From Methanobacteriota archaeon (GTDB lineage Archaea; Thermoplasmatota; E2; DHVEG-1), in NCBI GenBank assembly GCA_963769885.1, contig CAVYNH010000006.1:576001-640000 (forward strand): a stretch of DNA of 64,000 bases. Reading direction: 5' to 3'. Each line of letters opens with the position of its first letter. Within the stretch, counting starts at the first letter, position 1. The notes under the pieces are model-generated. The model had not been told where the DNA came from, ran no database searches, and saw nothing but the letters and a program-made list of their open reading frames with translations. Shown in pieces: positions 4,416 to 43,075 of the stretch. Position numbers and translations under genes: made by a program.

Positions 4416-4420
4416 TGTTT

Positions 4421-5455: not shown

Positions 5456-5624
5456 TTATTATTCCTCCAGTAAAATCAAGGCATATAGAGGGGCCCTGGC
5501 TTTAAATAATTAACCCTGCCCCGGAGCCTCCCTCCTCCTAAGACTGTCAACAGGCGTCTATTATTTGTCTCCAAACATTTAAAAGCGGCAGGGTCGTTGA
5601 CTATCTATTGGAGGATAACGGTCT

Positions 5625-7100: not shown

Positions 7101-7323
7101 AGCGACCTTGGTCCGTTGGAAACTAGGGGGCCGGCCGTGGAGCGGGCCGCTGTGCCGGGGTCGACTCAGCAGCGAGCCGTCGAGCGCGAGGGATGGCGTT
7201 CGCGGGTTGAGGGGATTCTCTGGTGAAACATCACGGGTTTCGTTCGCAAGCCCGCCTCCTTTTATTAAATTTAATAGATAGATTTAAATTGTATATCGGT
7301 AATTATTCTTCTCAGGAGGAAGC

Positions 7324-8844
7324 ATGGTTATGGTAAAAACATGTGCGTTTGGAAAGGCTGTTGTCGTGGAAATTGTTGTCATGGTTCTTGCGAGCATTCT
7401 CGCCGCTGGCGGGTGCCTCGGGGCGACGGCGGACACCAGAGGATCGGCGTCGCCGCTTTCAGGCCGTGATGATGTCCTCATGATCCCGGATTGGACCGCG
7501 GACCGCGTGTGCGCGTTCGACCCCTACAACGGATCGTACGTGGGCGATATCGTCCCGACGAGCTCGTATCTGCAGAGTCCAAAGTGCGCGCTGATCAGCC
7601 CACGTAGCACGATCTTCGTCTCCGATCAGGTTTCGGACGGGGTGTTCGAGTACAGCTCGAGCGGGGCTTACATCGCGACGATCACGAGCCTGGCGACGAG
7701 CGGCATCGACAACGTCCGAGGCATCAGGATATATAATGATTTGTTGTACGTGACGGTCTACCAGGGGACCTATGCGAATACGGTGCAGCGGTTCGACTGC
7801 AACGGCGCCGGCCAGATGACGTGGGCGTCGGCGAACAACCCCTTCGACCTAATCTTCCGCAGCGGCGATGCGCTGGTGACCAGCTTCGGTTCGCACAAGG
7901 TGGAGCGGTACAGTCTCACCGGCACCTATCTGGGGACGCTGATCAGCGGCATCAATTATCCCCAGCAGATCTTTGAGCGGGCGAACGGGAACCTATACGT
8001 CGCCGGCACAATCACGAATCAGGGGATCTATGAATACACAGATACCGGGACGCAGCTGAATTACTATCCCATCAGTCAGGGGACGCTTCGGGGCGTCTAC
8101 GAGCTTGGGAACGGGAAGCTGCTCGTCTCCACCAGCGACTCGGTCGGGACCTACGACACATCCACGTACCAGTTCCAGGTCGTGTACAGCGGCGGCAACT
8201 TCCAGTTCATCAATCTCTTTGGCGCGGGTGCCAACTCGCCTCCCTATGAGCCTTCGGACCCTGATCCAGCGGATGGGGCGGTGAACATTACCGTGGACAG
8301 CTCGCTGTCCTGGGTCGGCGGGGATCCTGACGGAGACCCGGTCACCTACGATGTCTACCTCGGGACCACGAGCCCGCCGGGCAAGGTCGCAAGCAACGTC
8401 ACCAACACCACGTACCAGCCCGCATCGCTGGCGTATGACACCACGTACTACTGGAAGATCGTGGCCTGGGACAACCACTATGCGTCCACGGCCGGCCCCA
8501 TCTGGCAGTTCACGACGGTGGAGGAGCTCGCCCCCGTCCTGGAAGTCTCGTTCATCCCCGGCTCGGTCGGCGTCACCGTCCAGGTGAAGAATAACGGGAC
8601 GGCAGCGGCTACCAACGTCTCCGTAGCGTTCACGGTCGACGGCGGCCTCATCATCATCCCCGGCGGCGGGCATAAACAGGTGGAAGTAGGGTCCCTCGAG
8701 CAAGGGAAGACCGGGACGGCGAAGCTGCTGTTGGTCGGCCTGGGGAAACCTACGATAACGGCGCAGGCCAGCTGCTCGGAAGGTGCGACGGCGGAGGCAT
8801 CGCACACTGTGCGATTCCTGTTCCTGATCTTCGTCATCTACTAA
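7324..8844 (+). CDS. Secreted beta-propeller protein with an FN3-like domain and the shared C-terminal domain
   Basis: AGGAGG RBS; NHL/SMP-30-like repeats; PSDPDPADGA...YYWKIVA module. Confidence 0.7.
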   Translation: MVMVKTCAFGKAVVVEIVVMVLASILAAGGCLGATADTRGSASPLSGRDDVLMIPDWTADRVCAFDPYNGSYVGDIVPTSSYLQSPKCALISPRSTIFVSDQVSDGVFEYSSSGAYIATITSLATSGIDNVRGIRIYNDLLYVTVYQGTYANTVQRFDCNGAGQMTWASANNPFDLIFRSGDALVTSFGSHKVERYSLTGTYLGTLISGINYPQQIFERANGNLYVAGTITNQGIYEYTDTGTQLNYYPISQGTLRGVYELGNGKLLVSTSDSVGTYDTSTYQFQVVYSGGNFQFINLFGAGANSPPYEPSDPDPADGAVNITVDSSLSWVGGDPDGDPVTYDVYLGTTSPPGKVASNVTNTTYQPASLAYDTTYYWKIVAWDNHYASTAGPIWQFTTVEELAPVLEVSFIPGSVGVTVQVKNNGTAAATNVSVAFTVDGGLIIIPGGGHKQVEVGSLEQGKTGTAKLLLVGLGKPTITAQASCSEGATAEASHTVRFLFLIFVIY

Positions 8845-8875
8845 AGAAGTCTAGTCTCTGACAACGAAAGCGAGA

Positions 8876-8932
8876 TGGGCAGCGCTCCGCCCCTTTCGGC
8901 CGTTTGCCCCTTCTTTTTTTCCTTTTTTCACT
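8876..8932 (+). terminator. GC-rich hairpin followed by a T-rich tract
   Basis: gggca...tgccc followed by ttcttttttttccttttttca after the stop codon. Confidence 0.45.
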
Positions 8933-9019
8933 TGTCCACTTAATAACCTGGTAGAACGATGGTGTTAGGTAAATTTAAATATAAATTGCCACATGTATTT
9001 TAATCAGAGGGCTAATATT

Positions 9020-11740: not shown

Positions 11741-11744
11741 GGAA

Positions 11745-11790
11745 GGCTAAAGGGCTCTTTAGCCCCTCTCCTCTTTTTTTCTTTCTTCTG
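11745..11790 (+). terminator. Hairpin followed by a T-tract
   Basis: ggctaaag-ggct-ctttagcc followed by a pyrimidine/T run. Confidence 0.6.
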
Positions 11791-11841
11791 CCTGAGCCAC
11801 AAGCAGTTTCAAAGAAACAATTTTTTTTTTAAAAAAACTAA

Positions 11842-11880
11842 CGGCCAGAGTAGGATAGTGCTAGGCCAATAGGAGGAATC
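11842..11880. repeat. Degenerate att-like junction copy
   Basis: taggatagtgctaggccaataggagga aligns without gaps to caggaagcgacgaggtcaacaggagaa at 22433. Confidence 0.45.
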
Positions 11881-12039
11881 TGAAGGGATAGAACGCACTA
11901 ATTAGCATGCCGGTTCCTGGAGCTGATGAGATTTGACTTTTTCGCTCCTTAAGTATTTACTTTAAAATCATCAGGAAATTAATATAAATACGAAATTAGA
12001 TGATAAAGCATATTTAGTTCAAGGGAGGAATACAAGAAT

Positions 12040-14028
12040 ATGAGAAGGTTATCTGTTGTCTTAATAGTAAGTCTGCTGATGATAAGCTGGGTACCAATCC
12101 TAAGTGCCCAATGGACTTCCAATCCCGCTGAAAACACGGCAATTACCATGATGGGTGGCGAACAGGCGCTGCCGAAGATCGCTGTTGATAGCGCCGGGTA
12201 TGCATACATCTCATGGTTTTCAATAGAAGGGGGGAATTATAATGTGCGGATGCAGCGTCTGGATCGTGATGGCAATGCGCTGTGGGGCGCAAATGGTGTG
12301 TTGGTCAGCGGCCAGCCTCAAGCGAGCTCGCTGACCGACTACGACCTGACCGTTGATTCGGCTGGGTATTCGGTTGTCACCTTTTCCGACATACGCACAG
12401 GTCAACTGAATCCTGTCGGGTATCGAGTTGCTCCGAACGGTACCATGATGTGGGGTCCGACCGGCGTCCTGCTTACAAACGACACCAACTATGACCCGAG
12501 CCCAAAAGTGTGCACCACGCCCGCTGGAAACAGCGTTTTTGCATGGCAAAGCTGTCCGGATACCGGCAACTATCAAGTCCGTCTGCAAAAAGTCTCGCCG
12601 GCCGGACAGAAGTTATGGGGGAACAGCATCATCATGACGCAATCTGGTGTTGATTATGTTTCCCCGTACTTGCAGCCGGCGGAGAACGACAGCGTGTACG
12701 TGATCTGGCATAAGGCGACCGGCTCGCACCTCTATCCCAATCGTGGGCTCTATGTGCAGAAGCTCGATGCGAACGGGAATTTCATGTGGGCATCGGCCCT
12801 GGAAATCTACGCCCCGGTCCCAGAGGGTCCGGTGGTGAATCTCCAGATGTGCAGGGACGATGTCGGAGGAATTATCTTCACTTGGTATCTTTCTACCGAC
12901 ATTAGCCACTTTTACTGTTATGTGCAGCGGATGGATGCCAATGGTACGATCAGCATGCCTGCCAATGGCGTGCTCGCGTCGACGTCGACGGCACGGATTC
13001 ACATGTATCCAACGCCGGCCTTTTTGAGCCAGACCCGTCAGATCGTCCTCTTCTTCAGCGAGCAGGATTTAAACCAGATTATGCGCGGCATGTATGCTCA
13101 GAAATTCGACCTTCAGGGCAACCGACTGTGGGGTGACGAAGGGAAAGAGTTGATTGGGCTTTCGAATAATGATTACTTCCTCCTGTTTGCTGGTGGGAAT
13201 GACAACAAGGCGATTTGCACCTATCAGGCTGCTGAACCTGGAAGTAGTCCCTATACCAAAATCCAGGCCGTGATGCTCGACGATTCGGGGAATTTCACGT
13301 GGCCGGGGCATTTCGTTGATCTGTGCACTGTTCTAAGCTCGAAGCTGCACAACGTGATGAGCCAGTATTATATGGGGCAATGGGTCGCGGTGTGGGAAGA
13401 CCTACGCAACGATGACGGGGATATCTATGCCCAGAACATCCAGCCAGACGGCACCCTTGGTCCTGTGGTGAACCAGCCTCCTGTCGCTGATTTCACCTGG
13501 ACGCCGTCCGACCCCTCGCCTGGCGAGGCCGTGCAGTTCACCGACCTTTCGCATGATCCCGTCGGGGATATCGTGAATTGGTCGTGGGATTTCGGCGATG
13601 GCAACACGAGTTTCGCTCAGAATCCGACGCATCTATACACACTGCCGGGGATGTACACGGTCAGCCTGATGGTGACCGATAACGATGGCGCCAATGGCAG
13701 CGTCTCGAAGAACCTTACCGTGATCAATCCGTACCTCAACATCACCATCAAACCCGGTGTCGGTCTTGGCATCACAGTGATTTTCAACAACAGCGGGCCA
13801 ACCGCCGTGCTCAAGGAGCCCTATGAGATCACGGTGAAAGGGGGAGTCCTCGGGCGTATCAACAAGCGTGTGAATGATACCGTCGATATCCCCGCTGGTG
13901 GGTCGACACCCGTCAAGACAGGGATGCTGTTCGGGTTCGGGGCGCTCAAGATCACCGCGAAGCTCGCTGACAAAGAACAGACCGCAACCGGAACGCAGAT
14001 CATCATCTTGACACTGGTGAAGAAATAG
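12040..14028 (+). CDS. Secreted repeat protein with a PKD domain and the shared C-terminal domain
   Basis: Signal peptide; repeated YxQR/KLDxxGNxLW units; WSWDFGDG PKD motif. Confidence 0.8.
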   Translation: MRRLSVVLIVSLLMISWVPILSAQWTSNPAENTAITMMGGEQALPKIAVDSAGYAYISWFSIEGGNYNVRMQRLDRDGNALWGANGVLVSGQPQASSLTDYDLTVDSAGYSVVTFSDIRTGQLNPVGYRVAPNGTMMWGPTGVLLTNDTNYDPSPKVCTTPAGNSVFAWQSCPDTGNYQVRLQKVSPAGQKLWGNSIIMTQSGVDYVSPYLQPAENDSVYVIWHKATGSHLYPNRGLYVQKLDANGNFMWASALEIYAPVPEGPVVNLQMCRDDVGGIIFTWYLSTDISHFYCYVQRMDANGTISMPANGVLASTSTARIHMYPTPAFLSQTRQIVLFFSEQDLNQIMRGMYAQKFDLQGNRLWGDEGKELIGLSNNDYFLLFAGGNDNKAICTYQAAEPGSSPYTKIQAVMLDDSGNFTWPGHFVDLCTVLSSKLHNVMSQYYMGQWVAVWEDLRNDDGDIYAQNIQPDGTLGPVVNQPPVADFTWTPSDPSPGEAVQFTDLSHDPVGDIVNWSWDFGDGNTSFAQNPTHLYTLPGMYTVSLMVTDNDGANGSVSKNLTVINPYLNITIKPGVGLGITVIFNNSGPTAVLKEPYEITVKGGVLGRINKRVNDTVDIPAGGSTPVKTGMLFGFGALKITAKLADKEQTATGTQIIILTLVKK

Positions 14029-14065
14029 GGAAGACGACTTCCCTTTCTCCCTTCTTTTCTTTTTA
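14027..14065 (+). terminator. Hairpin followed by a pyrimidine tract
   Basis: agggaag-acga-cttccct followed by a long T/C run. Confidence 0.6.
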
Positions 14066-14089
14066 AATTTCTTACGATAGCCTAGCTTC

Positions 14090-14146
14090 TTTTCCTGTTG
14101 CAGGAATGGGCCCGGCATGGTCCGGTTCCCGTCAACAGGAGAAAAT
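14090..14146. repeat. att-like junction: tRNA-Ile 3' core inside an inverted repeat
   Basis: tgggcccggca (11 bp identical to the tRNA-Ile 3' end) plus gtcaacaggagaaaat (16 bp identical to 22447-22462); tcctgttg/caacagga inverted repeat. Confidence 0.7.
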
Positions 14147-14414
14147 CGGATCGACAAACCCCTGTTTTTGGCCAGTGTCGATTTGCCAACCTTGGTATCA
14201 ATCTACCCTCTTTTTTTCTTTTTATGTACTTTTCAAAGCGCTTGATATTCCGCAGGGTAATGAGCCAAAATCAAATTCCCATACTGGTTAATAGTCGGGG
14301 GTGGGAGTAATAGAAAAAACCGTCTTCTCCAGTAGAAGGAATTTAATTTCTTCCAAACATTTAAATGAATTAACAGACATTATATCCGTAATGAATAAGG
14401 GCGGGAAAGACCAC

Positions 14415-16730
14415 ATGAGAACTACTCTCTGGACCAAAATAGTTGTTATAAGCATCATCCTCTTTCTCGGCACAGGTGTTGTCCCGGCAATCAACGGAAA
14501 CATCGAGCATAATGTGCAAGGTAGTCAATCAATAAAAACGATGCAACTTTCATCGTCCGCACTTACCTTTGACCAGACCTCTATTGCGTCACTTGCAAAC
14601 CCAGACGAACTGCCAATTGAAAAAATCGTCTCTAACAACGTCTACGTACAATCACCAAATCATCGACCGATTCTCGAATCGAATAACACCATGATTACCC
14701 AACCCTTAGACAACGATATCTATCGCACAGGGGATCTTATCGACATCGAAGGAACCGCAGACGGCGCAAATTTCCAATACTACACCGTCGACTGGGGGAT
14801 TGGCGAAAACCCCAGCCAATGGAACACTACCGGCATCACTCTCACCAACGACGGCCAAGAACCTATCGCCAACAACACCCTCGCCACCTGGAACACCAAC
14901 TTCGCCACCACCGCCAACTACTACACCCTCAGACTCACCGTCAATTACACCACCTCCCAAGACACCGCCCTCATCATCGACATCTACATCGACCCTGCCC
15001 TCAAACAAGGATGGCCACAACACATCCCCTTCGAATGGACCCCAGACGGCTTAACCTATTACTGGGCCGGATTACTTGAACCTGCCGTCGCTGACATCAA
15101 CAACGACGGCTACTCTGAAATCATCGCCTACAAAGGCGGAAACCCACCGAAACTGGATTGCTTCAGCCAAGACGGCACACTCCTCTGGGAAGCCCCCGTC
15201 GGAAACACAGATTCACCTGGTGGGAACCTCAACTACCCCGTCATCGGAGACGTCAATAACGACGGCTACGATGAAATCGTCGTCTTCCATTTCCTGCACT
15301 TCGACTTCGACCATTCACAAGTCTACGTCTTCGGCCACAACGGAGCAGTCCTACTCGGCTGGCCTGTCACACTCCCCAAAGAATTTCACGCGACAATCAT
15401 CATCGCCGATGTTAATAACGACGGATACCGGGATATCATTTTCAAAGGAAACGACGCCAAAAACCGAATGCTCATCGTCCTCGACCACACAGGATCAATA
15501 ATCACCCAATTTCCACTTTACCACGTAAATTGGGGAAGCTTCATCGAACCCTGCCCAACCGTCGGAAACTTCGACAGCGACCCAGAACTTGAAATTGTCA
15601 CCGCCGATCCTAGTGAATACGCCGGCTACAACTCGACCTCAGGACAATGGAACAACACCGGCGTCATTCACGTCTACAACCTCGACGGCACCGAAGTACC
15701 CGGATGGCCAGTTTACACCCCTGGTGTCATCTTCTCCTCGCCAGTTACTGCAGACATCAACAACGACGGCTACCCCGAAATCATCGTCGGACTCGAATTC
15801 GCCGGCGACGCACCCAACCCAGACTATGGCGGCCTCTACGTCTATGACCACAACGGCTATGTCCTCCCCGGCTTCCCCTTCGAAAAAGGCTGGAACTTCG
15901 CCTCCACACCCGCCGTCGCAGACTTCGACAACGACGGCTACCTCGAAATCACCGCCAGCCGACTCGGATTCTACACCTACGTCATCCACCACGACGGAAC
16001 ACTCGCAGCCGGATGGCCACAAACCACAATCTGGAACGACTACTACTCTACTATAGCCGGAGATGTCGACGGCGATCATATTCCCGACATCGTAACCACT
16101 GCTGGCAATGGATTCTGCCCCATCTACCAACCCGGCGGCGTCTATGCCTGGAAATACGACGGCACACCCATCCCCGGATTCCCCAAAGTCACTGAAGGCG
16201 ACGCACAAGCACCAGCCACTATCGCCGACATCGACAACGACGGCAAAGTCGAAATCATCGCCAGCTCCGACTGGGATATGGACTTCCAGACAGCCTCCTT
16301 CAAAGAACGAGGAACACTCTACGTTTGGGACATCAACACCACCTACAATCAAACCACGATGCTCTGGCCAACCTTCCACCTCAACACAGAACGCACCGGC
16401 ATGATCCCAACATCACCCATGCCATACCTCATAATTGGAAACATCACCGGAGGATTCTTTAAAATCAAATCAACCATCAACAATATAGGCACCGCACCAG
16501 CAACCACTATCCAATGGAACATCACGCTAACAGGCGGACTCATCCTCATAGGACGAAAAACAACCAGAACCATCTCAACGCTCAATCCCAGCATGGAACA
16601 AATCATTATGTCGAAAGCCATTATTGGTTTCGGAAAAACAGTGATCACCATCACGGCCGCCATACCAAGGATGACCGTGACAAAGCAACAGAACGCAACC
16701 GTGAGGTTGTTTTTCATTCACACGAACTAA
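14415..16730 (+). CDS. Secreted FG-GAP/VCBS-repeat beta-propeller protein with the shared C-terminal domain
   Basis: About seven P.xADINNDGYxEI repeats with GWP motifs; WPTFHLNTERTG. Confidence 0.85.
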   Translation: MRTTLWTKIVVISIILFLGTGVVPAINGNIEHNVQGSQSIKTMQLSSSALTFDQTSIASLANPDELPIEKIVSNNVYVQSPNHRPILESNNTMITQPLDNDIYRTGDLIDIEGTADGANFQYYTVDWGIGENPSQWNTTGITLTNDGQEPIANNTLATWNTNFATTANYYTLRLTVNYTTSQDTALIIDIYIDPALKQGWPQHIPFEWTPDGLTYYWAGLLEPAVADINNDGYSEIIAYKGGNPPKLDCFSQDGTLLWEAPVGNTDSPGGNLNYPVIGDVNNDGYDEIVVFHFLHFDFDHSQVYVFGHNGAVLLGWPVTLPKEFHATIIIADVNNDGYRDIIFKGNDAKNRMLIVLDHTGSIITQFPLYHVNWGSFIEPCPTVGNFDSDPELEIVTADPSEYAGYNSTSGQWNNTGVIHVYNLDGTEVPGWPVYTPGVIFSSPVTADINNDGYPEIIVGLEFAGDAPNPDYGGLYVYDHNGYVLPGFPFEKGWNFASTPAVADFDNDGYLEITASRLGFYTYVIHHDGTLAAGWPQTTIWNDYYSTIAGDVDGDHIPDIVTTAGNGFCPIYQPGGVYAWKYDGTPIPGFPKVTEGDAQAPATIADIDNDGKVEIIASSDWDMDFQTASFKERGTLYVWDINTTYNQTTMLWPTFHLNTERTGMIPTSPMPYLIIGNITGGFFKIKSTINNIGTAPATTIQWNITLTGGLILIGRKTTRTISTLNPSMEQIIMSKAIIGFGKTVITITAAIPRMTVTKQQNATVRLFFIHTN

Positions 16731-16747
16731 ACCAAACCCGAGCAACA

Positions 16748-16783
16748 AAAGAGATGCGGTCGGCAGGAAGCAGACAGGCGACC
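16748..16783. repeat. Degenerate att-like junction copy
   Basis: aaagagatgcggtcggcaggaagc versus aaatagatgggcccggcaggaagc at 22417; 11/14 match to the tRNA core. Confidence 0.55.
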
Positions 16784-16919
16784 GAGAGTAAGAGGAGGTG
16801 AAATATTCTGCTGCGTTGTGTGTTCTACTGCGTTTTTAAACCAATCAGGTTAAATATCACCGGAGGATTATAGATGTTTTACCCTTCAAGTTTTCTAGAA
16901 AATAAGGGAGGTAATATCA

Positions 16920-18189
16920 TTGTCCCTTGAAAGTCGACAGAGATTATTAATCGATAAAAAGCGGGTTGATGAAGTCAATGCTTTTTTTATGGATCCATCG
17001 AATAAGCTCATTCAAGATCTACTGGTGCTAGTAGAAAAATATGGAGGACCTGAGGAGATCAATCGAAAAGCACGGGAGAATGGCTCCATTGAATCGCTTC
17101 TGTCCCGTCTTCAAACGAAACACTCGCCGTATGTCAAGGATTTAGAATGGCTTTATAAACAGCGGGAAAAGCAGTCGTTCATTAGCGTGGATGAATACCG
17201 ACGGAGAATCCTCGGAGATCGAGTGAAGAAAATAACTGTTGATGAAGACTATGCAGTTACCCTTGAAATAAGCGCGTGTCAATATTTCCCTTTTTTTATG
17301 GTGGAAGCACGACAAGCACTTGAAAAAGAACAGTTGTTGCCAGGTCGTTTCATCCGTGTGCGTCGCATGAAGGAACAGGAACAAGACGACGACCTGCTCG
17401 CGATAAATGCTGCGATGCAGATTATTGGGGCGAGCTGGTGCGATACCTTGGATACGCGTGGAACTGATGGATCAAATGTTCATCTCGGAGGCCCAGAGAC
17501 CATTACAGGGTATTTTGGGGGTGTTGGGCAGCCAAATGACCATGCGATCCGCTGGGTAAATGAACTCCTCTACTACTACACCAACTATGGTGTACGTCAG
17601 GGTACTGAATGTCAATTCAGGGACGATTCTGTTGGGATATCTGCTCCATAAGCTCGGCATTGATATCGAGTTTAAGATTTCTGTCTTCATGGGGAATGAT
17701 AACCCGTATGCCGTGTTCTGGACGCTGATGGCTGCTCGGCTGTTTTCCCGGGATGACGGTTCCACCTCGTTAATCGGGTTCAACTTTTCAAACTCCGTGG
17801 ATAATCTCAGTATTGAGATGAGTGCTGACATCCGACGGTCTCTTGGGCTGGAGAGATACGTTCGATTTGAGCATCATATTCTGGAGACTTGGAAAAGCAT
17901 CGTCGTGCAACCGTATGATCGTCGGGAGGAGCTGTTAGATCTCGCCACAAAGGTGAAGAACATCAGCGCCAAGCATGAGGGTGGGGAACTCGTGGTGGAA
18001 CAACAACGGGCCCATCCCTCCGATATCCTTGACTATTTCCTTTCTAAGGAGGAAATCAACGAGAAAGGATTGATGTCCGATCTCCTCCAAAATTATCTGG
18101 ATAAACATGAGGCGATTAACAATACCGCGAAGGCGTTGACTGAAAAAGGTCTAGCATTTATTGCTGCATCAAAACTGCATCACAGGTAA
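16920..18189 (+). pseudogene. Uncharacterised enzyme-like gene of about 422 aa, split by one extra G at about 17600-17602
   Basis: GGAGGT RBS with TTG start; the two overlapping ORFs join as ...NYGVRQ|VLNVNSGT if one G of cag-g-gta is removed. Confidence 0.7.
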
Positions 18190-18199
18190 GGGATAATAC

Positions 18200-19243
18200 A
18201 TGCATTTCAAATTAGCGTTTATTGGCTTTGGAACCGTTGGACAAGGACTGGCTGAGATATTAGTAGAAAAAAAAGAGATGCTCTCGAAAAAATATGATTT
18301 CCAGTATACGGTTGTAGCCATTTCTGATATCATGAAAGGCTCTGTCTATGAGAAAGATGGTCTTGATTTGAAAAAGATCCTCGAACTCGTGAAAAAAGGG
18401 AAAAAGTTGGATGAGTACCCCGCCGGTAAGAAAGGTATGGATGGTCTCACGACAATCAAGGAAACGAATGCTGATACCATTATCGAGGTGACGTACACTG
18501 ATATAAAAACAGGTGAACCAGCGACGACGCACATCAAGACAGCTCTGAACGCTGGGAAGAATGTTGTCTCCACAAACAAAGGTCCGGTTGTTCGAGAGGC
18601 GAACGCTCTGTTAGATTTAGCTAGAAAGAAGGAGGTTCACTATGGTTTTGAGGGAGTTGTCCTCGCTGGAACACCTGCGTTAAATCTAGTCAAATACACT
18701 CTTGCAGGTACTAACATTAGGGGGTTCAAAGGGATATTGAATGGTACAACCAACTACATTTTAACCCGCATGGGCGAAGGCATGTCCTATGAAGATGCTT
18801 TGAAAAAAGCCCAAGCCCTTGGGTATGCTGAGGCCGATCCAACAGCAGATGTGGAAGGTATTGACGCAATGGGCAAAGTCGTTATTTTGACAAACGTCGT
18901 GTTAGAAAAAAATATTACAGTGAACGATGTACAAAGGAAAGGTATTACTGAAGTTACACAAAAGGATATCAAGGATGCAGCATCTGAAGGGAAATGCTGG
19001 AAATTAATTGGTAGTGCAGAGGTGCAAGCAAATGGCTCAGTGAAGGCAAGAGTCTGGCCTGAGAAACTGCCTTTGAGCGATCCGCTTGCAGGTGTGAGAG
19101 GTGCGACAAATGCGCTGACCTATTCCACTGATGAACTCGGTCCGGTCACGATTGTCGGACCCGGTGCTGGTCGCCGTGAGACAGGGTTTGCGTTGCTAAT
19201 CGATCTCTTAAACCTCAATCGCGAAATGCAAAAAACCCCTTGA
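18200..19243 (+). CDS. hom: Homoserine dehydrogenase (no ACT domain)
   Basis: IGFGTVGQG, VVSTNKGP, GILNGTTNYIL, GYAEADPTADVEGID and GPGAG..ET motifs. Confidence 0.92.
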   Translation: MHFKLAFIGFGTVGQGLAEILVEKKEMLSKKYDFQYTVVAISDIMKGSVYEKDGLDLKKILELVKKGKKLDEYPAGKKGMDGLTTIKETNADTIIEVTYTDIKTGEPATTHIKTALNAGKNVVSTNKGPVVREANALLDLARKKEVHYGFEGVVLAGTPALNLVKYTLAGTNIRGFKGILNGTTNYILTRMGEGMSYEDALKKAQALGYAEADPTADVEGIDAMGKVVILTNVVLEKNITVNDVQRKGITEVTQKDIKDAASEGKCWKLIGSAEVQANGSVKARVWPEKLPLSDPLAGVRGATNALTYSTDELGPVTIVGPGAGRRETGFALLIDLLNLNREMQKTP

Positions 19244-19295
19244 GAGAAAAAAGAATTCGCCCTTGGAGGATAGATAGAATGGACGGGGAAACTAC

Positions 19296-21131
19296 ATGAC
19301 CGGCGGATACACTGGGACAACCCTTATCGTTGATCTCTCGACACAACAAACCAGAAGAGAAAGCACAAGGATAGATGATGCCAAACTGTTCATTGGTGCA
19401 AAAGGCCTTGGTGCAAAACTGCTCATCGATCGCCTTCCTAAGGGTACCGATCCTTTCTCCCCGGTGAACCTCCTGATGTTTGGAACCGGGCCATTAACAG
19501 GGACGTCAGCACAAACGTCTGGCCGAGGAACAGTGATCACCAAATCACCACAGACTGGATTGTTTGTGGATTCCCATTTCGGTGGCGCGTTTGCCATGGA
19601 GATGAAACGATGCGGCTATGATATGATCGTGTTCTCTGGCAAATCGAAAACCCCGACCTATATCACCATAGCAGATGACCATATCGAATTCAAAGACGCC
19701 GCACACCTCTGGGGAATGGAGTGCCTGAAAACCCACGAATGGCTGCAACAAAATGAAGGGCGCGTGAAAACCGCGGTGATTGGTCCAGCAGGGGAACATC
19801 TCGTAAAGTTTTCTGCGATTACCTTTGATGGTCACCGTCATGCGGGTCGCTGTGGCACTGGGGCAGTGATGGGGTCGAAACTCTTGAAAGCCGTGACTAC
19901 GCAGGGGACGTACAACATACCACTGCATGACCCTCAGCAGTTTCAAGAGCTCTCAAAAAGAGTTCTACAAAAAATCCAAGAACATCCATTTGTCCCTATC
20001 CGAAGGGAATATGGGACGCCATTCTGGGTGAAACCAATCAATGACGGGGGGCTGCTCCCCACACAGAATTTTCAGGAAGGCGTATTTGATCATGCACAGG
20101 GGATTACCGCAGAAACCATGCAAGATCGTGTTGTCGACAAGGGTGGCGCCTGTTGGAACTGCGTGATTGCCTGTTGGAACAGATCCAGCGTGAAATCAGG
20201 GCCGTTCAAAGGAACCTCGCTGGTGGGCCCAGAGTATGAGACCTTGGCGTTGATGGGATCAAATTGCGGCGTCGCAAGTGTTGAAGAAGTCGCGTATTTG
20301 AATGAACGATGTAATGAGCTTGGGATGGATACGATCTCCCTAGGTAATGTGCTTGCGTTCACCATTGAATGCGTTGAAAAAGGTATTCTTTCAACAAAGG
20401 ATCTGTTAGGCATCAATATCGGCTGGGGGAAAACAAGAGAACTCGCTCAGCTGATAGAGGCAATTGCCTATCGGAAAAATGCCGCCTGTGATGCCCTAGC
20501 GGATGGTGTCTATATAGCGTCTCGTCGGTTCGGAAAAAAGGCTGAGCGTATCGCGGTGCATGTGAAAGGCCTTGAGGTACCAGGATATGATCCTCGAGGG
20601 AGCGTTGGCATGGGTCTTGCGTATGCCACCTCTGATCGCGGTGCCTGTCATCAGCGCGCGTGGACGGTGACCACCGAGATGAATAATCCAGAGTATCAGC
20701 GATTTTCTTTTACAAAGAAAGCGGAGTTGGTGAAACGGATTCAGGATGAACGTGCCGCTTTTTTTTCTTTGGTATTCTGTGATTTTGCACCTATTTCTGA
20801 GGAGGATTGCGTTGGATTGTGGAATCATGCAGCAGGTTTTAATCACACCGTTGAGAGCTATCTATTAGCGGGTGAGAGGATTTGGAATCTCATTCGACTG
20901 TTTAACCTCCGGGAGGGGATGAACCCAGGAACTGATCGATTACCACCGCGTTTTCATAAAGACGCTTTCACGAAAGGCCCTGCAAAAGACAGAGTCCTCA
21001 ATGAAAATGAGTTCAACAAAAGTCTTCAAGAATATTACGCGCTTCGTGGATGGAATGAAAAAGGGATTCCCACCAAAGAAAAACTCAATCAATTAGGGTT
21101 GACATCGTATGCGAAGTCCATTGGTCTGTAA
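19296..21131 (+). CDS. aor: Tungsten/molybdopterin aldehyde:ferredoxin oxidoreductase family protein
   Basis: KSPQTG, AGRCGTGAVMGSK, CWNCVIAC, GPEYET, GMDTIS, YDPRG and RGACH motifs. Confidence 0.92.
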   Translation: MTGGYTGTTLIVDLSTQQTRRESTRIDDAKLFIGAKGLGAKLLIDRLPKGTDPFSPVNLLMFGTGPLTGTSAQTSGRGTVITKSPQTGLFVDSHFGGAFAMEMKRCGYDMIVFSGKSKTPTYITIADDHIEFKDAAHLWGMECLKTHEWLQQNEGRVKTAVIGPAGEHLVKFSAITFDGHRHAGRCGTGAVMGSKLLKAVTTQGTYNIPLHDPQQFQELSKRVLQKIQEHPFVPIRREYGTPFWVKPINDGGLLPTQNFQEGVFDHAQGITAETMQDRVVDKGGACWNCVIACWNRSSVKSGPFKGTSLVGPEYETLALMGSNCGVASVEEVAYLNERCNELGMDTISLGNVLAFTIECVEKGILSTKDLLGINIGWGKTRELAQLIEAIAYRKNAACDALADGVYIASRRFGKKAERIAVHVKGLEVPGYDPRGSVGMGLAYATSDRGACHQRAWTVTTEMNNPEYQRFSFTKKAELVKRIQDERAAFFSLVFCDFAPISEEDCVGLWNHAAGFNHTVESYLLAGERIWNLIRLFNLREGMNPGTDRLPPRFHKDAFTKGPAKDRVLNENEFNKSLQEYYALRGWNEKGIPTKEKLNQLGLTSYAKSIGL

Positions 21132-21150
21132 CACAGGTCTCTGAGGAGTA

Positions 21151-22320
21151 GTGCGAAACATGGTGAGCGTAAGCGAGGGAGCGAAACGGATTTATGGTGA
21201 GGCTGCCTTCGAAGTCCTTGCCAGGGCTCAAGAACTCGAGCGACAAGGGAGGCACGTGCTTCATTTTGAAATCGGCGAGCCGGACATGGAAACTCCTCGA
21301 AACATCGTCCAGGCGGGAATCAAGGCGATTCGTCAGAGAAAAACCCATTACACTCCCTCCGTCGGCATTGCGGAGCTTCGAAAGGCTGTGCAAGATGAGG
21401 TGGAAAAAACACGGAGGTTTCGCCCTGATTTCGATCAGGTCGTGATTACTCCTGGGTTGAAACCAGGTATCTTTTTTTCCATGCTCGCGCTTGTGAACCC
21501 TGGAGATGAAGTGATCTTTCAGGATCCAGGGTATCCCACCTACGGCTCTGTCACCGAGTTTCTTGGAGCAACAAGCGTTCGTATTCCACTGCTAGAAGAA
21601 AATGAGTTCCGTATGAACCCTGACGATGTTCAACAGCGGATTACACACAAAACAAAAGGAATCATCGTCAACTCTCCACAGAACCCCACAGGATCGGTCA
21701 TGACCCAGAAGGAACTCGAGGAGATTGCAGAGATTGCTGAAGAACATGATCTGTTTATCATTTCAGATGAAATCTATTCGAAGATGATTTATGATATGGA
21801 CCATTATTCTCCTGCTGTGAGAGATGAAGCAAAAGAACGTTCTGTGTTATTAGAGGGATTTTCCAAGTATTACGCGATGACTGGGTGGCGCCTTGGATAC
21901 GTGATAGCACCAGTGGAGGTGGCCCATCGATTAGCGGATTTTTTAGTCAGTGCAGTCTCGTGCACCGCTTCGTTTACCCAGTGGGCAGGTATTGAAGCTT
22001 TGACCGGTGATCAAGCCTTTATTTCTCAGATGATGACCCGCTTTAGAAAAAAACGTGATCGTATCGTCAAAGGGTTGAACTCCATTCAAGGCTTTCACTG
22101 CCTCACTCCTCAGGGTGCATTTTACGCGTTTCCAAATATCACAAAAACAGGGCTACATTCAAAGGAGTGTGCCGAAAAAATTTTGTCTGAGGCTGGGGTC
22201 GCCTGTCTTCCTGGGACGGCGTTTGGTCCTTATGGCGAAGGATATCTTCGATTTTCCTATGCGACTTCATTAAAAACCATTGATGAGGGGATTAGGAGAA
22301 TCAAAGAATTGTTTGAATAG
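21151..22320 (+). CDS. PLP-dependent class I/II (aspartate-type) aminotransferase
   Basis: IGEPD, NSPQNPTG, SDEIY and GFSKYYAMTGWRLG motifs. Confidence 0.92.
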   Translation: MRNMVSVSEGAKRIYGEAAFEVLARAQELERQGRHVLHFEIGEPDMETPRNIVQAGIKAIRQRKTHYTPSVGIAELRKAVQDEVEKTRRFRPDFDQVVITPGLKPGIFFSMLALVNPGDEVIFQDPGYPTYGSVTEFLGATSVRIPLLEENEFRMNPDDVQQRITHKTKGIIVNSPQNPTGSVMTQKELEEIAEIAEEHDLFIISDEIYSKMIYDMDHYSPAVRDEAKERSVLLEGFSKYYAMTGWRLGYVIAPVEVAHRLADFLVSAVSCTASFTQWAGIEALTGDQAFISQMMTRFRKKRDRIVKGLNSIQGFHCLTPQGAFYAFPNITKTGLHSKECAEKILSEAGVACLPGTAFGPYGEGYLRFSYATSLKTIDEGIRRIKELFE

Positions 22321-22369
22321 AAGATAGAGGCCCTCCAGAAAATAAACATGGCGACATACGGGAATCTGA

Positions 22370-22495
22370 AGATTGTTTGGTGGAAAATCGTCAATCTTCT
22401 ATATTTTCTCCGAGAAAAATAGATGGGCCCGGCAGGAAGCGACGAGGTCAACAGGAGAAAATTTTTTAGATTGTTTGCCGATTTTCGCTCAATCT
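22370..22495. repeat. Symmetric attP-like site centred on a 14-bp copy of the tRNA-Ile 3' end
   Basis: AGATTG-N16-CAATCT arms at 22370-22397 and 22468-22495; attttctcc/ggagaaaat inverted repeat; core tgggcccggcagga at 22424-22437 identical to 23796-23809. Confidence 0.85.
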
Positions 22496-22766
22496 AAATT
22501 TTGAAGAATGGTTCTTTTTTCACTAAAACATACTCTATTTTTTCTTCCCTTTTTCTAAATTTTTGATGCTTCTATTGGGAAAACCTACTAATTGTAAAAT
22601 GCTCCTAGGTTGAAGGATTTTTCACCAATTGCTAGACTGTTCTCCGAGGAAGTTGTTCGCTAAATCTTCAAGGCTTAGCTACCGAAGGCCGCAGGAGGGG
22701 AGAGATAGATCTACTGTGAAATCTCTGCATACAAATTATTGCCGTAAACAAGTATTTTTTCTATGC

Positions 22767-23210
22767 TTATACCAATCGATAATCCTCTTTAACCACCTCT
22801 AACACCACATGTGTGTTTGTTCTTTCTACGTACGGTATGGAAAGAACAGTCTTTGTAAATTCACTGAGTGTTTTTCTGTTCTTGAACTTCGCAATTGCAA
22901 CTGCATCAAATTCTCCTGTGACATCATACATTGCACACACATTGGAAATCTTGGCAATTTCATTTTCGACTTCAAGTAATTTTCCTTTTGATACGATGAT
23001 TTCCGTGATAGCGGTCAGTTCGTAACCAAGCTTCTCGTAATCTGTTATCGCCGAATATCTGCGTATGATTCCAGCGTTTTCCATTTTCTTTATTTTCATA
23101 ATAACAGTTCCGACTGAGACTTTCACTTTTTTAGCTATTTTCCTGTTTGAGACTCTCGCATTTTCAAGAAGATTTTTTAGTATATTGACGTCTGTCTTAT
23201 CCAAATCCAT
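22767..23210 (-). CDS. Lrp/AsnC family transcriptional regulator
   Basis: MDLDKTD..IL..L..NAR HTH start; YDVTGEFD RAM-domain motif. Confidence 0.92.
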   Translation of the reverse strand: MDLDKTDVNILKNLLENARVSNRKIAKKVKVSVGTVIMKIKKMENAGIIRRYSAITDYEKLGYELTAITEIIVSKGKLLEVENEIAKISNVCAMYDVTGEFDAVAIAKFKNRKTLSEFTKTVLSIPYVERTNTHVVLEVVKEDYRLV

Positions 23211-23255
23211 AATGAACCTCTGCCATTATACATATTTCCAATATTTATTAAATTT

Positions 23256-23271
23256 TTGGACAATTGTTCAA
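23256..23271. promoter_or_regulatory. Palindromic candidate operator in the divergent Lrp promoter
   Basis: ttggacaattgttcaa, a near-perfect palindrome in the AT-rich divergent intergenic region. Confidence 0.4.
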
Positions 23272-23356
23272 TATTTTTAAAAATAGCTTTATATGTATTC
23301 ATATTTATTAATGCTTTCAAAATTATTAACAAGAATCAAGGAGAGGTGAAACATCT

Positions 23357-23731
23357 ATGAAAACCATCGGGTATTTAGAAGGAACAGATCCGGAGTTCTT
23401 AACGACGCTTGTATGTAAGGGCTATCGAACGTTACCAATTGGGAACGATACCGATAACCATGGAAAAAACATCGCATTCATATCAATCGCAGATAAAATC
23501 GATCTCATCGTCGGATATCTCCACAAGGTATCCCCACTCCCAGGAATGACCAAATCCCTCAGCGAGTTCCTCACACCAGGGATTCTCCATCAAATACCAA
23601 TTCTCTTACTCGCCCCCAAAGACCTGTTCCCTGAAGCAAAGAAGATAGTATCAAAAGCGACCATGAGTAAAAATATCAAAGTGGTTGATCCAAAAAATCT
23701 TAGGACCGAAGCATTAAAAATCCTCCGTTAA
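23357..23731 (+). CDS. Small alpha/beta hypothetical protein
   Basis: GAGGTGA RBS; 124-aa ORF with GYLEGTD, DNHGK and VGYLHK segments. Confidence 0.75.
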   Translation: MKTIGYLEGTDPEFLTTLVCKGYRTLPIGNDTDNHGKNIAFISIADKIDLIVGYLHKVSPLPGMTKSLSEFLTPGILHQIPILLLAPKDLFPEAKKIVSKATMSKNIKVVDPKNLRTEALKILR

Positions 23732-23795
23732 AACTATTCTATATGTAATTCAAAAAAGAATAGCAATCTATCACGTTTTTTCCGAGAGAAAAAGG

Positions 23796-23869
23796 TGGGC
23801 CCGGCAGGATTTGAACCTGCGACCAACTGGTTATGAGCCAGTCGCTCCACCGGTCTAAGCTACGAGCCC
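23796..23869 (-). tRNA. tRNA-Ile2(CAU); elongator Met is less likely
   Basis: GGGCTCGTAGCTTAG...CTGGCT-CAT-AACCAG...GGTTCAAATCCTGCCGGGCCCA; GGGC acceptor stem typical of archaeal Ile tRNAs. Confidence 0.85.
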
Positions 23870-23931
23870 CAAGGAAAATTTCAGACCTAATCACACTGCT
23901 ACTACTTAAAATTTCTAAAGACAAACCACCC

Positions 23932-24582
23932 TCATAACCAGGAGACGACCCGTCGCGGATCCGGTCGCCGCACCGCCGCCGGCGTCTCACCCGCGTACCC
24001 CAGCAGACACCCATCCAACACATGCCCACCCATGGGAAGACCCAGCAGCCGACAGAACTCAGCGTCATCCGTCATCCTCTGCGTCGCCGTCACCAGCTGA
24101 AACCCCAGCCCCAGCGCCGTCGCCTCCAGCCACATGTTCTGCAGACAATGCGCCAGCGAACAATGCTCCACATGCGGGATCCCCCGCTGCTCACCCACCA
24201 CCAGATAATACGGTGCCTTCGCCAACAGCGGCACCTCCTCCCGGGCCGCCATCTGCAGCACCCGCAGGTACGCCTGGCCGCCCGCCTTCACCGCAGGGTC
24301 GCGCGCCATCTCCGCCTCCAGCTGCTGCCGCGACGCCACGATGCCGCGACGCAGCAGCGCCGTCGCCTCCGCCATCGCCGGGCTCTCCCGAGGAATGACG
24401 ATTATTCGGCGGAACTCCTCGCCGGAGACGCCGAGCCCCGAATACGGCGCAAGCAACCCCGCACGCACGACACGTTCCACCAGTTCCCGGGCCGGCGCCT
24501 GCGCGGTAAACCGCCGGACCGTCCGACGAGCCGCGATGATCTCCTCCAACACCGTCGCTTTATCATTCACCATAGCAGCCAT
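23932..24582 (-). CDS. Nitroreductase family protein
   Basis: RRTVRRF, APYS and QNMWLEATALGLG motifs. Confidence 0.85.
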   Translation of the reverse strand: MAAMVNDKATVLEEIIAARRTVRRFTAQAPARELVERVVRAGLLAPYSGLGVSGEEFRRIIVIPRESPAMAEATALLRRGIVASRQQLEAEMARDPAVKAGGQAYLRVLQMAAREEVPLLAKAPYYLVVGEQRGIPHVEHCSLAHCLQNMWLEATALGLGFQLVTATQRMTDDAEFCRLLGLPMGGHVLDGCLLGYAGETPAAVRRPDPRRVVSWL

Positions 24583-24724
24583 ATCCAGAACTCACCTCAC
24601 GAATACCACGATTCACAAGACCTACGCCCTACTTATGCTTTATCCCGATAGAGAAATAGAAAAGAAGAGAAAGGAAAGGAGATGGGGTGGAAGGCCGTCG
24701 GCCCACCTCCTCTTCCCAAACGGT

Positions 24725-26596
24725 TTATCCGTACTGATGGAACAGATGCTCAAGCCAGGGGAAGTGGGTCAGCAGCCAGTCCCAGAACGGGTGCGATACG
24801 CCCTGGTTCACCGGGGTCTTCAGGGAGATCGGGATGAGGACGTAGTCGCTGCCGTTCTCCTCATTCACAACTTTCACATTACCCGTGAACGTCTGGTATT
24901 TCTGGGTTGGGGCAACGACCGAAACCTGGATGGTCTTCGATCCATCCTCAGGCTTGAGGTTATCGCCTCTTAACGGTGTGAACGTCCAGTTCCCCCAATC
25001 ATGAGGATAATCAGCGACTTTCCAATCCAACCGGGAGGTCGGATCGCCGATGTTTCTGATTGTGAAGTTGCCCGTGACCGTACCGCCGACATGCACATCC
25101 GTCCACGTCAGGCTGCTCTGACTGTCCAGGTTCGGATTAAGATTATGCAGCGGGCAGACAATCACTGCGGATTCCACGACCGTGTAGTTCGCCGTCACCG
25201 GGTACCCTTGAATGTACCACGTGCAGTGGATCCCTGGATCCGGTGAGCCGATAACAACATTGTACTGATCGTGCGAGACGTTCTTCGTGTCGTTATGATC
25301 CGTTACCCCAGGCGTATTCACGTTGAAGTCCGGGTCCGAGAACGCGATCTTCAGGTTCTGCGTGTCGACCCCGGCGCAGGTCACGAAATGCCCCGCGCCC
25401 TTTTCCACGATCGGGTTGTAGTACAGGGTCTTGAACGTCCAGTCGAACCACGTCGGCCCCGGGACCCCGTCCTTCCAGCCCATCCCAGGCGGATACGGGT
25501 CCCCGGTCGCCTGCACGTAGAACCACTCGTAGTAGTTCACATCAGGGCTGGGGACTTCTCGGACATCGAAGTAGTAGGTGCTGCCAGCAGTGAGGGGGAC
25601 TGCCGGGAATGGGAATCGGACCCAGGTTGCCGCTGCGAAGTAGCCGGGGTTAAGAGTTGAGGTTGCGATGGGCACCGCAGGCGAGGGCGCGTTGTAGAGG
25701 CTTACCCGGACGTCACAGGTGGCATGCGCTCCATTGTTATTCACGAGGCAAACGTCAATGGCGTCGAGACGGTTGACGCTGGGCACGAAGCTTTGGTAGT
25801 CCCACCAGTTCATCGGCTGCAGGTTGTCATTGCTCGACTGCACCACCGGCATTTGTTGGTCGATGAGGAGGTTCCCGAGGTTTCGGGTGTAGTCGCTGAG
25901 GAGCAGGATGACGTCCTGGCAGGCAGTAATATTCGCCGCGACGCTAGCGAAGGTCAGATTGCCGTAGGTGTGCTCGGAGAACATGCTGGTCAGGCCGGTG
26001 GTCGTAAACCAGTTCGTCAATGCGGTCTGCATGTCGCTGACGTAGGTGGTGCCTTTGCTGGTGGTCTGCATCGCACGGGCGAGGGACTCGATGAGGAGCG
26101 GGACGTTGGCCTTGGCGTGATCGTCGCCGGCGCCGTAGTTCTTCACGAGGTCGAACTCGTTCAGACCGTCGCCTGGCGTGCCGTTCGGATCCTCGAACCG
26201 AGAATCAAGCCACCACAGGCAGTTGGCGACCGCGACGGGACCGCAGAAGCACCATGCAGCGACGTCGTCGCCCGCCACCACGCTGTCAAGGTGGGCGTTC
26301 GGTCCGGGGGCGATGCAGTTCTCCGCGACGTTGAGGATGTCGTCCCCCGCGACCACGGAGTTGAGAACGCCGTTGGGACCAGCCGTGATCTTCTTCCAGG
26401 CATCCTGTTTCTGATCGAAGTCCGGCATCCCGCCCGGGGTGTGCGGCGCGTAGTTGGGGTACGGCGGCTTCCAGTACCAGCCCCGTGCCATGTCTTTAGG
26501 TCCAACGCTGAGTGCGATCGGCATCCCCGAAACGAGGAGGACGCTGATAAGCAGCATGCTAACAACTATCTTTTTCTGTGTCTGATGGTAGACCAT
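24725..26596 (-). CDS. Secreted papain-like (C39/C1-like) cysteine peptidase with an amphipathic tail
   Basis: GGAGG RBS; DFDQ...FCGPVAVAN (Cys), GHFVT (His), FSDP (Asp); tail FWDWLLTHFPWLEHLF. Confidence 0.65.
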   Translation of the reverse strand: MVYHQTQKKIVVSMLLISVLLVSGMPIALSVGPKDMARGWYWKPPYPNYAPHTPGGMPDFDQKQDAWKKITAGPNGVLNSVVAGDDILNVAENCIAPGPNAHLDSVVAGDDVAAWCFCGPVAVANCLWWLDSRFEDPNGTPGDGLNEFDLVKNYGAGDDHAKANVPLLIESLARAMQTTSKGTTYVSDMQTALTNWFTTTGLTSMFSEHTYGNLTFASVAANITACQDVILLLSDYTRNLGNLLIDQQMPVVQSSNDNLQPMNWWDYQSFVPSVNRLDAIDVCLVNNNGAHATCDVRVSLYNAPSPAVPIATSTLNPGYFAAATWVRFPFPAVPLTAGSTYYFDVREVPSPDVNYYEWFYVQATGDPYPPGMGWKDGVPGPTWFDWTFKTLYYNPIVEKGAGHFVTCAGVDTQNLKIAFSDPDFNVNTPGVTDHNDTKNVSHDQYNVVIGSPDPGIHCTWYIQGYPVTANYTVVESAVIVCPLHNLNPNLDSQSSLTWTDVHVGGTVTGNFTIRNIGDPTSRLDWKVADYPHDWGNWTFTPLRGDNLKPEDGSKTIQVSVVAPTQKYQTFTGNVKVVNEENGSDYVLIPISLKTPVNQGVSHPFWDWLLTHFPWLEHLFHQYG

Positions 26597-42932: not shown

Positions 42933-42985
42933 CCCGGGTAATCTCCCCGGGGTATTTCAAATGAACCACCGTGAAAAAGAGGGAG

Positions 42986-43075
42986 TCCCGCCTCCCGGAT
43001 TTGAACCGGGGACCTGCCGGTCACGGCCGATAGGGTCTACAGCCGGCCGCTCCAGCCAGACTGAGCTAAGGCGGG
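42986..43075 (-). tRNA. tRNA-Tyr(GUA) with a 15-nt intron at position 37/38 (about 43022-43036)
   Basis: CCCGCCTTAGCTCAG...GCCGG-CT-GTA-G[ACCCTATCGGCCGTG]A-CCGGC...GGTTCAAATCCGGGAGGCGGGA; C1-G72 pair. Confidence 0.9.

Follow-up and report, generated by a model that had tools for sequence, protein, structure and literature searches.

A probable composite attachment junction with paired hairpin arms in a tRNA(CAU)-anchored island of a Thermoplasmatota archaeon

The DNA analysed here (the window) was a 64,000-nucleotide stretch of a contig from an archaeon of the Thermoplasmatota. It carried a tRNA(CAU) gene on the minus strand (23796-23869; Met according to ARAGORN), which appeared to serve as an integration target and as the anchor of an array, and a 126-bp symmetric site at 22370-22495. 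The site was situated between convergent genes, an aminotransferase gene ending at 22320 and, on the minus strand, a gene for an Lrp/AsnC-family regulator (22767-23210; Pfam PF01037 and PF13412) ending at 22767. Towards the tRNA followed a 124-aa ORF on the plus strand (ORF124, 23357-23731), for which DNA matches of ~69% were found in genomes G014 and G018 and for which searches of Pfam and PHROG returned no match. Next came a hairpin with a 7-bp stem and a 16-nt loop (23734-23763), corresponding to a tRNA-proximal P' hairpin, and a 46-bp sequence made up of the trailer and the 3' end of the tRNA (23764-23809), the tRNA-proximal copy of a direct repeat whose other copy lay within the 126-bp site. 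The two copies enclosed only the Lrp/AsnC gene and ORF124, which we regard as the cargo of the last cassette in the array.

A sister species (G001) was syntenic with the window at 3019-6974 and 23759-26500; the interval between these two blocks, 16.8 kb in the window, measured 3.6 kb in G001 and contained other genes. Because synteny on both sides enclosed a differing middle, the stretch from ~7 kb up to the tRNA is a variable, tRNA-anchored island, and many contigs diverged from the window precisely at the tRNA 3' end (loose ends at 23794-23796). For annotation, ~7000-23800 can be described as an accreted island and 22370-22495 as one junction within it. An older junction of the same kind was found at 14107-14146, where 11 of 13 core positions were followed by a 13-nt spacer, the 14-nt right-flank motif seen at the 126-bp site and a hairpin, and there was a weaker junction-like copy at 16755.

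The 126-bp site had been picked out from the letters alone as an attP-like site with symmetric arms around a tRNA-derived core, and its geometry was exactly as described in that original prediction. The outer arms, each AGATTG-N16-CAATCT, occupied 22370-22397 and 22468-22495; an inner 9-bp inverted repeat was present at 22403-22411 and 22454-22462; both pairs shared a centre at 22432.5, inside the 14-bp tRNA core; and the arms contained the loop motifs gaaaatcg (22383-22390) and cgattttc (22479-22486). The core itself (22424-22437) was identical to 23796-23809 at 14 of 14 positions and in direct orientation. It corresponded to the discriminator, the 3' strand of the acceptor stem, the 3' strand of the T-stem and one T-loop base of the tRNA(CAU), whose gene lay 1.37 kb away, the repeat copies being 1372 bp apart. 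Some of these features proved longer or less regular on closer alignment: the inner inverted repeat sat within a 20-nt pair that was 80% complementary (22392-22411 and 22454-22473), the loop motifs were centred on 22434.5, two bases off the arm centre, and the direct repeat extended without gaps to 46 bp (22392-22437 and 23764-23809, 37/46 or 80% identical) and spanned the CAATCT hexamer, the trailer and the 3' end of the tRNA. From shuffles of the window, 0.03 matches to the arm pattern were expected, and none of 100 shuffles contained two; across the whole 2.09-Mb genome, the two arms of this site were its only occurrences. Each arm could form a hairpin with an A+T-rich stem of 8-9 bp and a 16-nt loop, better than shuffled sequence (z -3.2 to -4.8).

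Compared with relatives described below, the left outer arm (22368-22399; 8-bp stem, 16-nt loop, z -3.9) corresponded to the P'-arm hairpin of an element family, its stem ending 24 nt from the copy of the tRNA end. The left half of the inner repeat (22403-22411) fell within a P' motif of the same family, TTTTCTCC followed by GAGA or TGTT, which was situated 5-13 nt from the tRNA end in most of the integrase-adjacent P' arms listed and was found in several tRNA(CAU) trailers too. After the core, which formed the terminal part of the 46-bp repeat, the P arm began at 22438-22462 with a variable 12 nt and then the right half of the inner repeat, conserved as AACAGGAG(AAAAT). The right outer arm (22465-22498; 9-bp stem, 16-nt loop, z -3.2 and -4.8) corresponded to the family P-arm hairpin, and the rest of the P arm (22499-22563, plus strand) was homologous by alignment to the region upstream of a gene that we call ORF126 in relatives. 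This last part included a conserved CACTAAAA motif at 22521-22528 that occurs in most P arms. Distances from arm to core were 27 and 30 nt in the window, compared with 28 and 31 nt in G088. The AACAGGAGAAAA motif alone was not diagnostic, having eight exact copies in the genome, a resemblance to ribosome-binding sites and a reversed control only ~2-fold lower. Most P arms also had, upstream of ORF126, a CTCACTAAAA-type motif (22520-22529 in the window) at ~75-95 nt from the core; it may be a promoter element on either strand. We also considered whether the 12-nt spacer might be what is left of a T-loop and T-stem, and did not adopt this reading; a T-loop-like heptamer was present in some junctions and a T-stem partner in none.

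Junctions of the same kind were found in other genomes. When up to two mismatches were allowed, 16 of 118 genomes from the order had the pattern of a tRNA-end 13-mer, N12 and AACAGGAG, and none had the reversed control pattern. Exact matches to the core-N12-motif pattern were found in five public contigs, four of them labelled Thermoplasmata or Thermoplasmatota and one Clostridia; a search of viral contigs for the exact pattern gave no match. The junction was usually 1.4-3.8 kb from a tRNA(CAU) gene and the cargo in between differed case by case, being for example a restriction-modification (R-M) system in G020 and a cluster of permease, thioredoxin and DsbD in G075, while three direct junction copies lay within 10 kb in G077. 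The right flank of the junction was conserved over ~130 nt across genera, and the 12-nt spacer after the core was not. Homologues of the arms accompanied these cores: sequence matching the right arm over its 5' half and loop was kept beside junction cores in G048, G049, G050 and G051 and at loci L056 and L023, a 10-nt motif in the right-arm loop was common to the window and the P arm of the G008 element, and the left arm of the window had a clear homologue to the left of the second junction copy in G077. Arms are thus tied to tRNA cores elsewhere, and a possibility that would have spoken against the original prediction, that arms of this kind are never associated with tRNA cores in other genomes, did not hold. 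The CAATCT partner was not conserved at L035-L037 and L056, where the right arm retained its 5' half and loop. Three of eight one-mismatch matches to the right-arm motif lay in apparent coding sequence and were taken as chance. At two loci, L038 (G069) and L045 (the third junction copy of G077), two cores were separated by only ~110 nt of gene-free spacer, which contained repeats of a 15-nt palindromic motif; these may be 'empty' units of P and P' arms only.

The same hairpin and inverted-repeat plan flanked elements with a tyrosine integrase adjoining a tRNA gene. Eight complete elements were recovered with both ends; they were 3.7-11 kb long and encoded a divergent tyrosine integrase of ~430 aa beside the tRNA. 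This integrase family was present in 68 of 108 genomes of an uncultured Thermoplasmata family, often in multiple copies or as pseudogenes, adjoining tRNAs for Met, Pro, Arg, Val, Ile, Ala and Lys. Matches to PF00589 were weak (21-41 bits), no named NCBIfam family and no relative in the PDB were found by sequence, and the ~200-aa N-terminal region had no match in Pfam. In G088, a tRNA-Met was followed by a 436-aa integrase (PF00589, 40.8 bits), a restriction enzyme, a methyltransferase and a junction. A longer arrangement on G001:C20 consisted of a three-junction array, ORF126, a 2133-aa ORF, a 467-aa integrase (42% identical to that of G088) and tRNA-Arg(CCT), with the core of the array matching the 3' end of this tRNA. 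Giant ORFs of 1372-2272 aa were a recurrent cargo of the elements and adjoined junctions (for example L059:10093-16494, L047:11993-18811 and the elements in L108, L114 and L115). The R-M pair of G088 was found in G020 at 87% nucleotide identity and without an integrase, both pairs being situated at a tRNA-Met (L062 on G088:C2 and L015 on G020:C113). The 34 nt adjoining the G020 tRNA matched the left flank of the distal junction in G088 (96% over 47 nt including the core), so simple deletion of the integrase does not explain the arrangement in G020.

Most of the eight complete elements shared the order hairpin, inverted repeat, core, inverted repeat, hairpin. Read from the distal end, this comprised a tRNA-end core, a spacer of ~12 nt, an inner motif (AACAGGAG or the complement of CCTCCGAGA), a hairpin, a CACTAAAA-type motif, ORF126 (in at least four of the eight), cargo and integrase. 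At the proximal end, the end of the integrase gene ran into a second hairpin, followed by TTTTCTCC with TGTT or GAGA, a 5-13-nt spacer and the tRNA; in G088 the last codons and stop of the integrase could be seen directly to run into the P' hairpin. We evaluated 28 P' arms, 26 of them integrase-adjacent and two from the window. The best hairpin ended 23-28 nt from the tRNA end in 16 of the 28, mostly with loops of 14-18 nt, and the left arm of the window, 24 nt from its tRNA-end copy, fits this position. Stems of at least 6 bp were present in 71% of the P' arms compared to 21% of shuffles, the corresponding figures for stems in P arms being 83% and 36%. More than ten different sequences made up the P' stems, with position and loop length kept.

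Outer P' and P arms co-varied, being more alike within elements than between them (mean local score 21.3 vs 15.4; permutation p = 0.0004, a value inflated by related elements in the set). The two sides shared one stem in G088, a different one in G076 and AGATTG/CAATCT in the window. The matching was clear in G076, G088, G116 and the window, weak in G016 and G001:C35, and near background in several elements; the P' and junction hairpins of G019 differed, and may belong to different elements. Since arms match within elements, the symmetry of the 126-bp site is a property of the family and not a local accident. The orientation of the inner repeat varied: in the tRNA-Arg element of G016 (L114) it was flipped, the P' side bearing AACAGGAG and the P side the complement, and at the distal junction of G008 (L104) it was direct on both sides of the core, so a simple head-to-head binding model is insufficient.

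In at least four of the eight complete elements, the gene adjoining the P arm was ORF126, which was absent from the window (examples of the gene are L051:1596-1976 in G050, L059:9671-10057 in G001, and L056:6001-6366). In a circular form of such an element, ORF126 and the integrase gene would therefore flank attP. The protein was ~125 aa long, with 588 close relatives and no Pfam family. Its structural model (pLDDT 85.9) weakly resembled Vsr-like/EDxHD homing-endonuclease and T7 endonuclease I folds; the best PDB match was the catalytic domain of I-Bth0305I (E 1.7e-3; TM 0.52 by model and 0.64 by target), and the family matched a PHROG Holliday junction resolvase with E 2.9e-7. Residues D48 and E59 were invariant, with C61 in place of the usual lysine. 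ORF126 may thus have a PD-(D/E)xK nuclease fold, and it is a candidate accessory or directionality factor. In the window, homology to ORF126 loci was restricted to the upstream non-coding part and ended at ~22563. The stretch 22560-22766 was considered as a decayed ORF126 and rejected after a six-frame profile search (best E 0.34), and a relationship between ORF124 and ORF126 was ruled out by comparison. In G048, the ORF126 homologue (L049:1601-1747) matched the first 49 residues only, and a reverse transcriptase ORF (PF00078; L049:2333-3016) was found ~600 nt downstream, possibly belonging to a group II intron.

We consider it likely that the 126-bp site is a composite P'-core-P att junction in a tRNA(CAU)-anchored array built by repeated integration of one element family. 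A first integration would have replaced the tRNA trailer with the P' arm of the incoming element, and a second at the same tRNA would have left the older P' arm, the core and the newer P arm between the two elements, giving the attP-like appearance. At 22370-22495, the left arm, inner motif and trailer would then represent the P' arm and the right side the P arm. The 14-bp core would be the copy of the tRNA 3' end in which strand exchange took place; the inner 9-bp inverted repeat, ~10-16 nt from the core, is probably a pair of core-proximal integrase binding sites; and the outer arms are this lineage's version of the family's paired P' and P hairpin-palindrome modules. The 1.37-kb segment with the Lrp/AsnC gene and ORF124, like the operon to the left, would be an integrase-less cassette; loss of integrases from the cassettes in the window and cassettes that never had one are equally compatible with the data. 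As at other att junctions, the insert was bounded by a direct repeat of the tRNA 3' end (14/14, or 46 bp at 80%) and varied between flanks that are syntenic in G001; an integrase inside the element and beside the tRNA was absent from the window and present in the eight homologous elements. As in lambda-type sites, repeated element-specific sites were present in both P and P', apart from the core. The proposal of a site-specific recombination site around a tRNA 3' end was therefore borne out by recurrence and by integrase-bearing homologues, while its reading as attP needs revision, the site appearing to be no episomal attP and instead a chromosomal P'-core-P junction among integrase-less cassettes.

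The paired hairpin arms are an att feature of the whole family. Judging from sequence, the outer arms would be element-specific recognition or architectural sites, bound by the N-terminal region of the integrase or by an accessory protein; the likeness of arms within elements is as expected of element-specific recognition sites. Consistent with a role in recombination, hairpin position was kept on both sides of the core, stems were matched within an element, and the hairpins outlasted the integrase. Alternatively, the elements may carry the outer arms along as terminators, insulators or hairpins at mRNA 3' ends, with the P' hairpin ending the integrase transcript, the P hairpin stopping read-through into ORF126 or cargo, and neither taking part in recombination. 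The att junction would then stand and its symmetry would be a by-product, which we regard as possible, though doubtful. The stop codon of the G088 integrase fell in the loop of the P' hairpin with a T-rich stretch after it, and other P' arms were similar; junctions in the window and G001 lay 25-133 nt after the 3' ends of plus-strand genes; runs of T or A occurred in many loops and tails; and the stems varied freely with complementarity kept. Terminators, however, would have no need for the same stem on both sides of one element, and hairpins were kept in cassettes without an integrase. A scan of 22250-23900 for canonical intrinsic terminators (G+C-rich stem, 3-8-nt loop and a T run directly after) found no sites, the hairpins here having A+T-rich stems and 16-nt loops that such a scan, which requires G+C-rich stems, would pass over. 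Archaeal termination is generally known to depend on oligo-T rather than on hairpins. Mismatches beside the P' stems were A.C in 12 cases and G.T in one (on the integrase sense strand, in a small and non-independent sample), a poor fit to a plus-strand RNA helix. The arms without CAATCT at L035-L037 and L056 and the flipped or direct inner repeats were a poor fit to both the recombination and the terminator model.

As an att junction, the site is probably an inactive relic. No integrase was found in the window, the nearest PF00589 match being 78 kb away. Two intact family integrases were encoded elsewhere in the genome (G000:C7:200252-201325 and G000:C4:132059-133321), adjoining tRNA-Pro(TGG) and tRNA-Arg(CCG), with arms that differed from those of the 126-bp site; a search for their distal att copies found none within 18 kb at up to two mismatches. 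The genome had no family integrase at this tRNA(CAU), and none of its other integrases had matching arms. Contigs from four metagenome DNA runs contained no joint skipping the cassette, no empty site and no circular joint. In a sister-strain contig (97.8% identical), the layout was kept with five SNPs in the 126 bp (22377, 22382, 22403, 22447 and 22469); the core and AACAGGAG motif were unchanged, and one SNP broke the right hexamer with no compensating change listed. SNPs in the site accumulated at about the intergenic rate. It is the combination of no cognate arm or integrase, no excision joint, the SNPs and the uncompensated right hexamer that points to inactivity.

These observations also bear on the suggestion that cassettes lacking an integrase are still moved in trans by the family integrase, in a cis-mobilizable or integron-like manner, so that the junction is a working site. 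Across the window, G001, G077, G020 and G075, more than ten cassettes had junctions and neither an integrase nor an integrase pseudogene, P' hairpins and inner motifs directly followed unrelated cargo genes, near-empty units of ~110 nt were present in G069 and G077, and the R-M pair occurred both with (G088) and without (G020) an integrase. Set against this are the metagenome runs with neither excision joint nor empty site, the near-intergenic SNP rate, the lack of a cognate arm or integrase in the window's genome, and the boundaries of the DsbD cluster, which differed between G075 and G077 in a way that looks like deletion or rearrangement and not clean cassette movement. On balance we find trans-mobilization at this site unlikely. 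A bolder version is that of a tRNA-anchored, integron-like platform, in which cassettes with symmetric sites form circles that are handled by a tyrosine integrase acting in trans, perhaps with ORF126, and the stems act as an address code. We would give this even less credence; if true, co-varying stems would match each cassette to its integrase.

A small antisense RNA against the tRNA 3' end, encoded by the core together with the right arm and terminating at the right hairpin and T run, is highly improbable. A TATA-like stretch at 22399-22406, the hairpin and TTTT after the core, and a right flank conserved across genera would suit such an RNA. The conserved flank, however, already has an explanation as the region upstream of ORF126, the 12-nt spacer was not conserved, the 140-nt stretch folded no better than shuffles (z -1.2 and -2.0), and 22250-22850 matched no Rfam family even at E up to 10, with tRNAs alone reaching gathering scores across the whole window. 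Least probable is that the arms are operators of the neighbouring regulator: Lrp/AsnC-family proteins bind palindromes and the gene is only 270 nt away, but the site faces the 3' end of that gene and not its promoter, the motif is found nowhere else in the genome, and G088 has the same plan in an element holding only an integrase, a restriction enzyme and a methyltransferase, which makes this reading very unlikely.

Accepting the composite att junction as the likely reading, we compared it to known systems. The attP arms of phage lambda consist of direct sites in asymmetric sets, together with sites for IHF, Xis and Fis. Unlike lambda, the sites described here had one palindromic or hairpin unit per arm, placed in near mirror symmetry at ~27 and 30 nt from the core, as well as an inner inverted repeat, and where lambda arms have Xis and IHF, no arm-binding domain and no Xis or IHF equivalent was identified in this element family. 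Lambda attP likewise has a short core that is identical to its target, long P and P' arms with repeated sites that differ from the core, and a total length well above 100 bp (PMC8371274). The original prediction had proposed an undescribed recombination-site architecture; we see it as a variant of the arm-bearing att sites of tyrosine integrases and not as a new kind. Like the elements of classical class II (lambda/pNOB8-type) archaeal integrases, those found here have an intact integrase beside the tRNA and are bounded by a direct repeat of the tRNA 3' end, and, as here, such elements occur in tandem at one locus with integrase-less remnants persisting (PMC8371274). The same review distinguishes 17 integrase families, covers gene capture and tandem integrated elements in archaea, and reports that archaeal att sites need nucleotides outside the block of identity between attB and attP; the plan of hairpins and inverted repeats around a core with co-varying arms, and the term 'arm-type', are absent from it (PMC8371274).

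Bacterial islands provide further parallels. In the excerpted text of the two reports concerned, streptococcal CIMEs with ICEs and IMEs form tandem islands at tRNA genes through decay and accretion (PMC5704250), and Dehalococcoides ssrA islands lie in tandem downstream of the tmRNA gene with direct repeats of its 3' end (PMC3146451). According to the same excerpts, many of these islands lack integration genes while attL and attR are kept, and a conserved motif adjoins each repeat (PMC5704250, PMC3146451). They differ from the array described here in being bacterial, and in Dehalococcoides in having a serine recombinase as integrase; paired hairpin arms are not mentioned in the excerpts of either report (PMC5704250, PMC3146451). 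Integron attC sites are similar in being imperfect palindromes of 60-140 bp that lie between promoter-less cassettes in one orientation, with no recombinase in the cassette. In contrast to attC, the core motif order here was GTT...AAC instead of AAC...GTT and the centre was a tRNA 3' end; the array ended at a tRNA and not at attI/intI, no IntI/attI head was found, and the linked recombinase was not IntI.

What is new here is the link of the site to an integrase family, to ORF126 and to a plan with co-varying arms. The integrase family, its partner ORF126 and the att-site grammar were all defined by comparison alone. Site recognition by archaeal integrases is little known outside the Sulfolobales, Thermococcales and haloarchaea, and co-varying arms offer a hypothesis for how specificity is encoded. 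Arrays anchored at tRNA genes would also explain the shuffling of metabolic operons, secreted proteins, regulators and R-M systems in these archaea of sediments and wetlands. Elsewhere in the window, ARAGORN identified a 91-nt tRNA with a four-base anticodon on the minus strand at 42985-43075; it scored 51.6 bits against the Rfam tRNA model and probably contains an intron.
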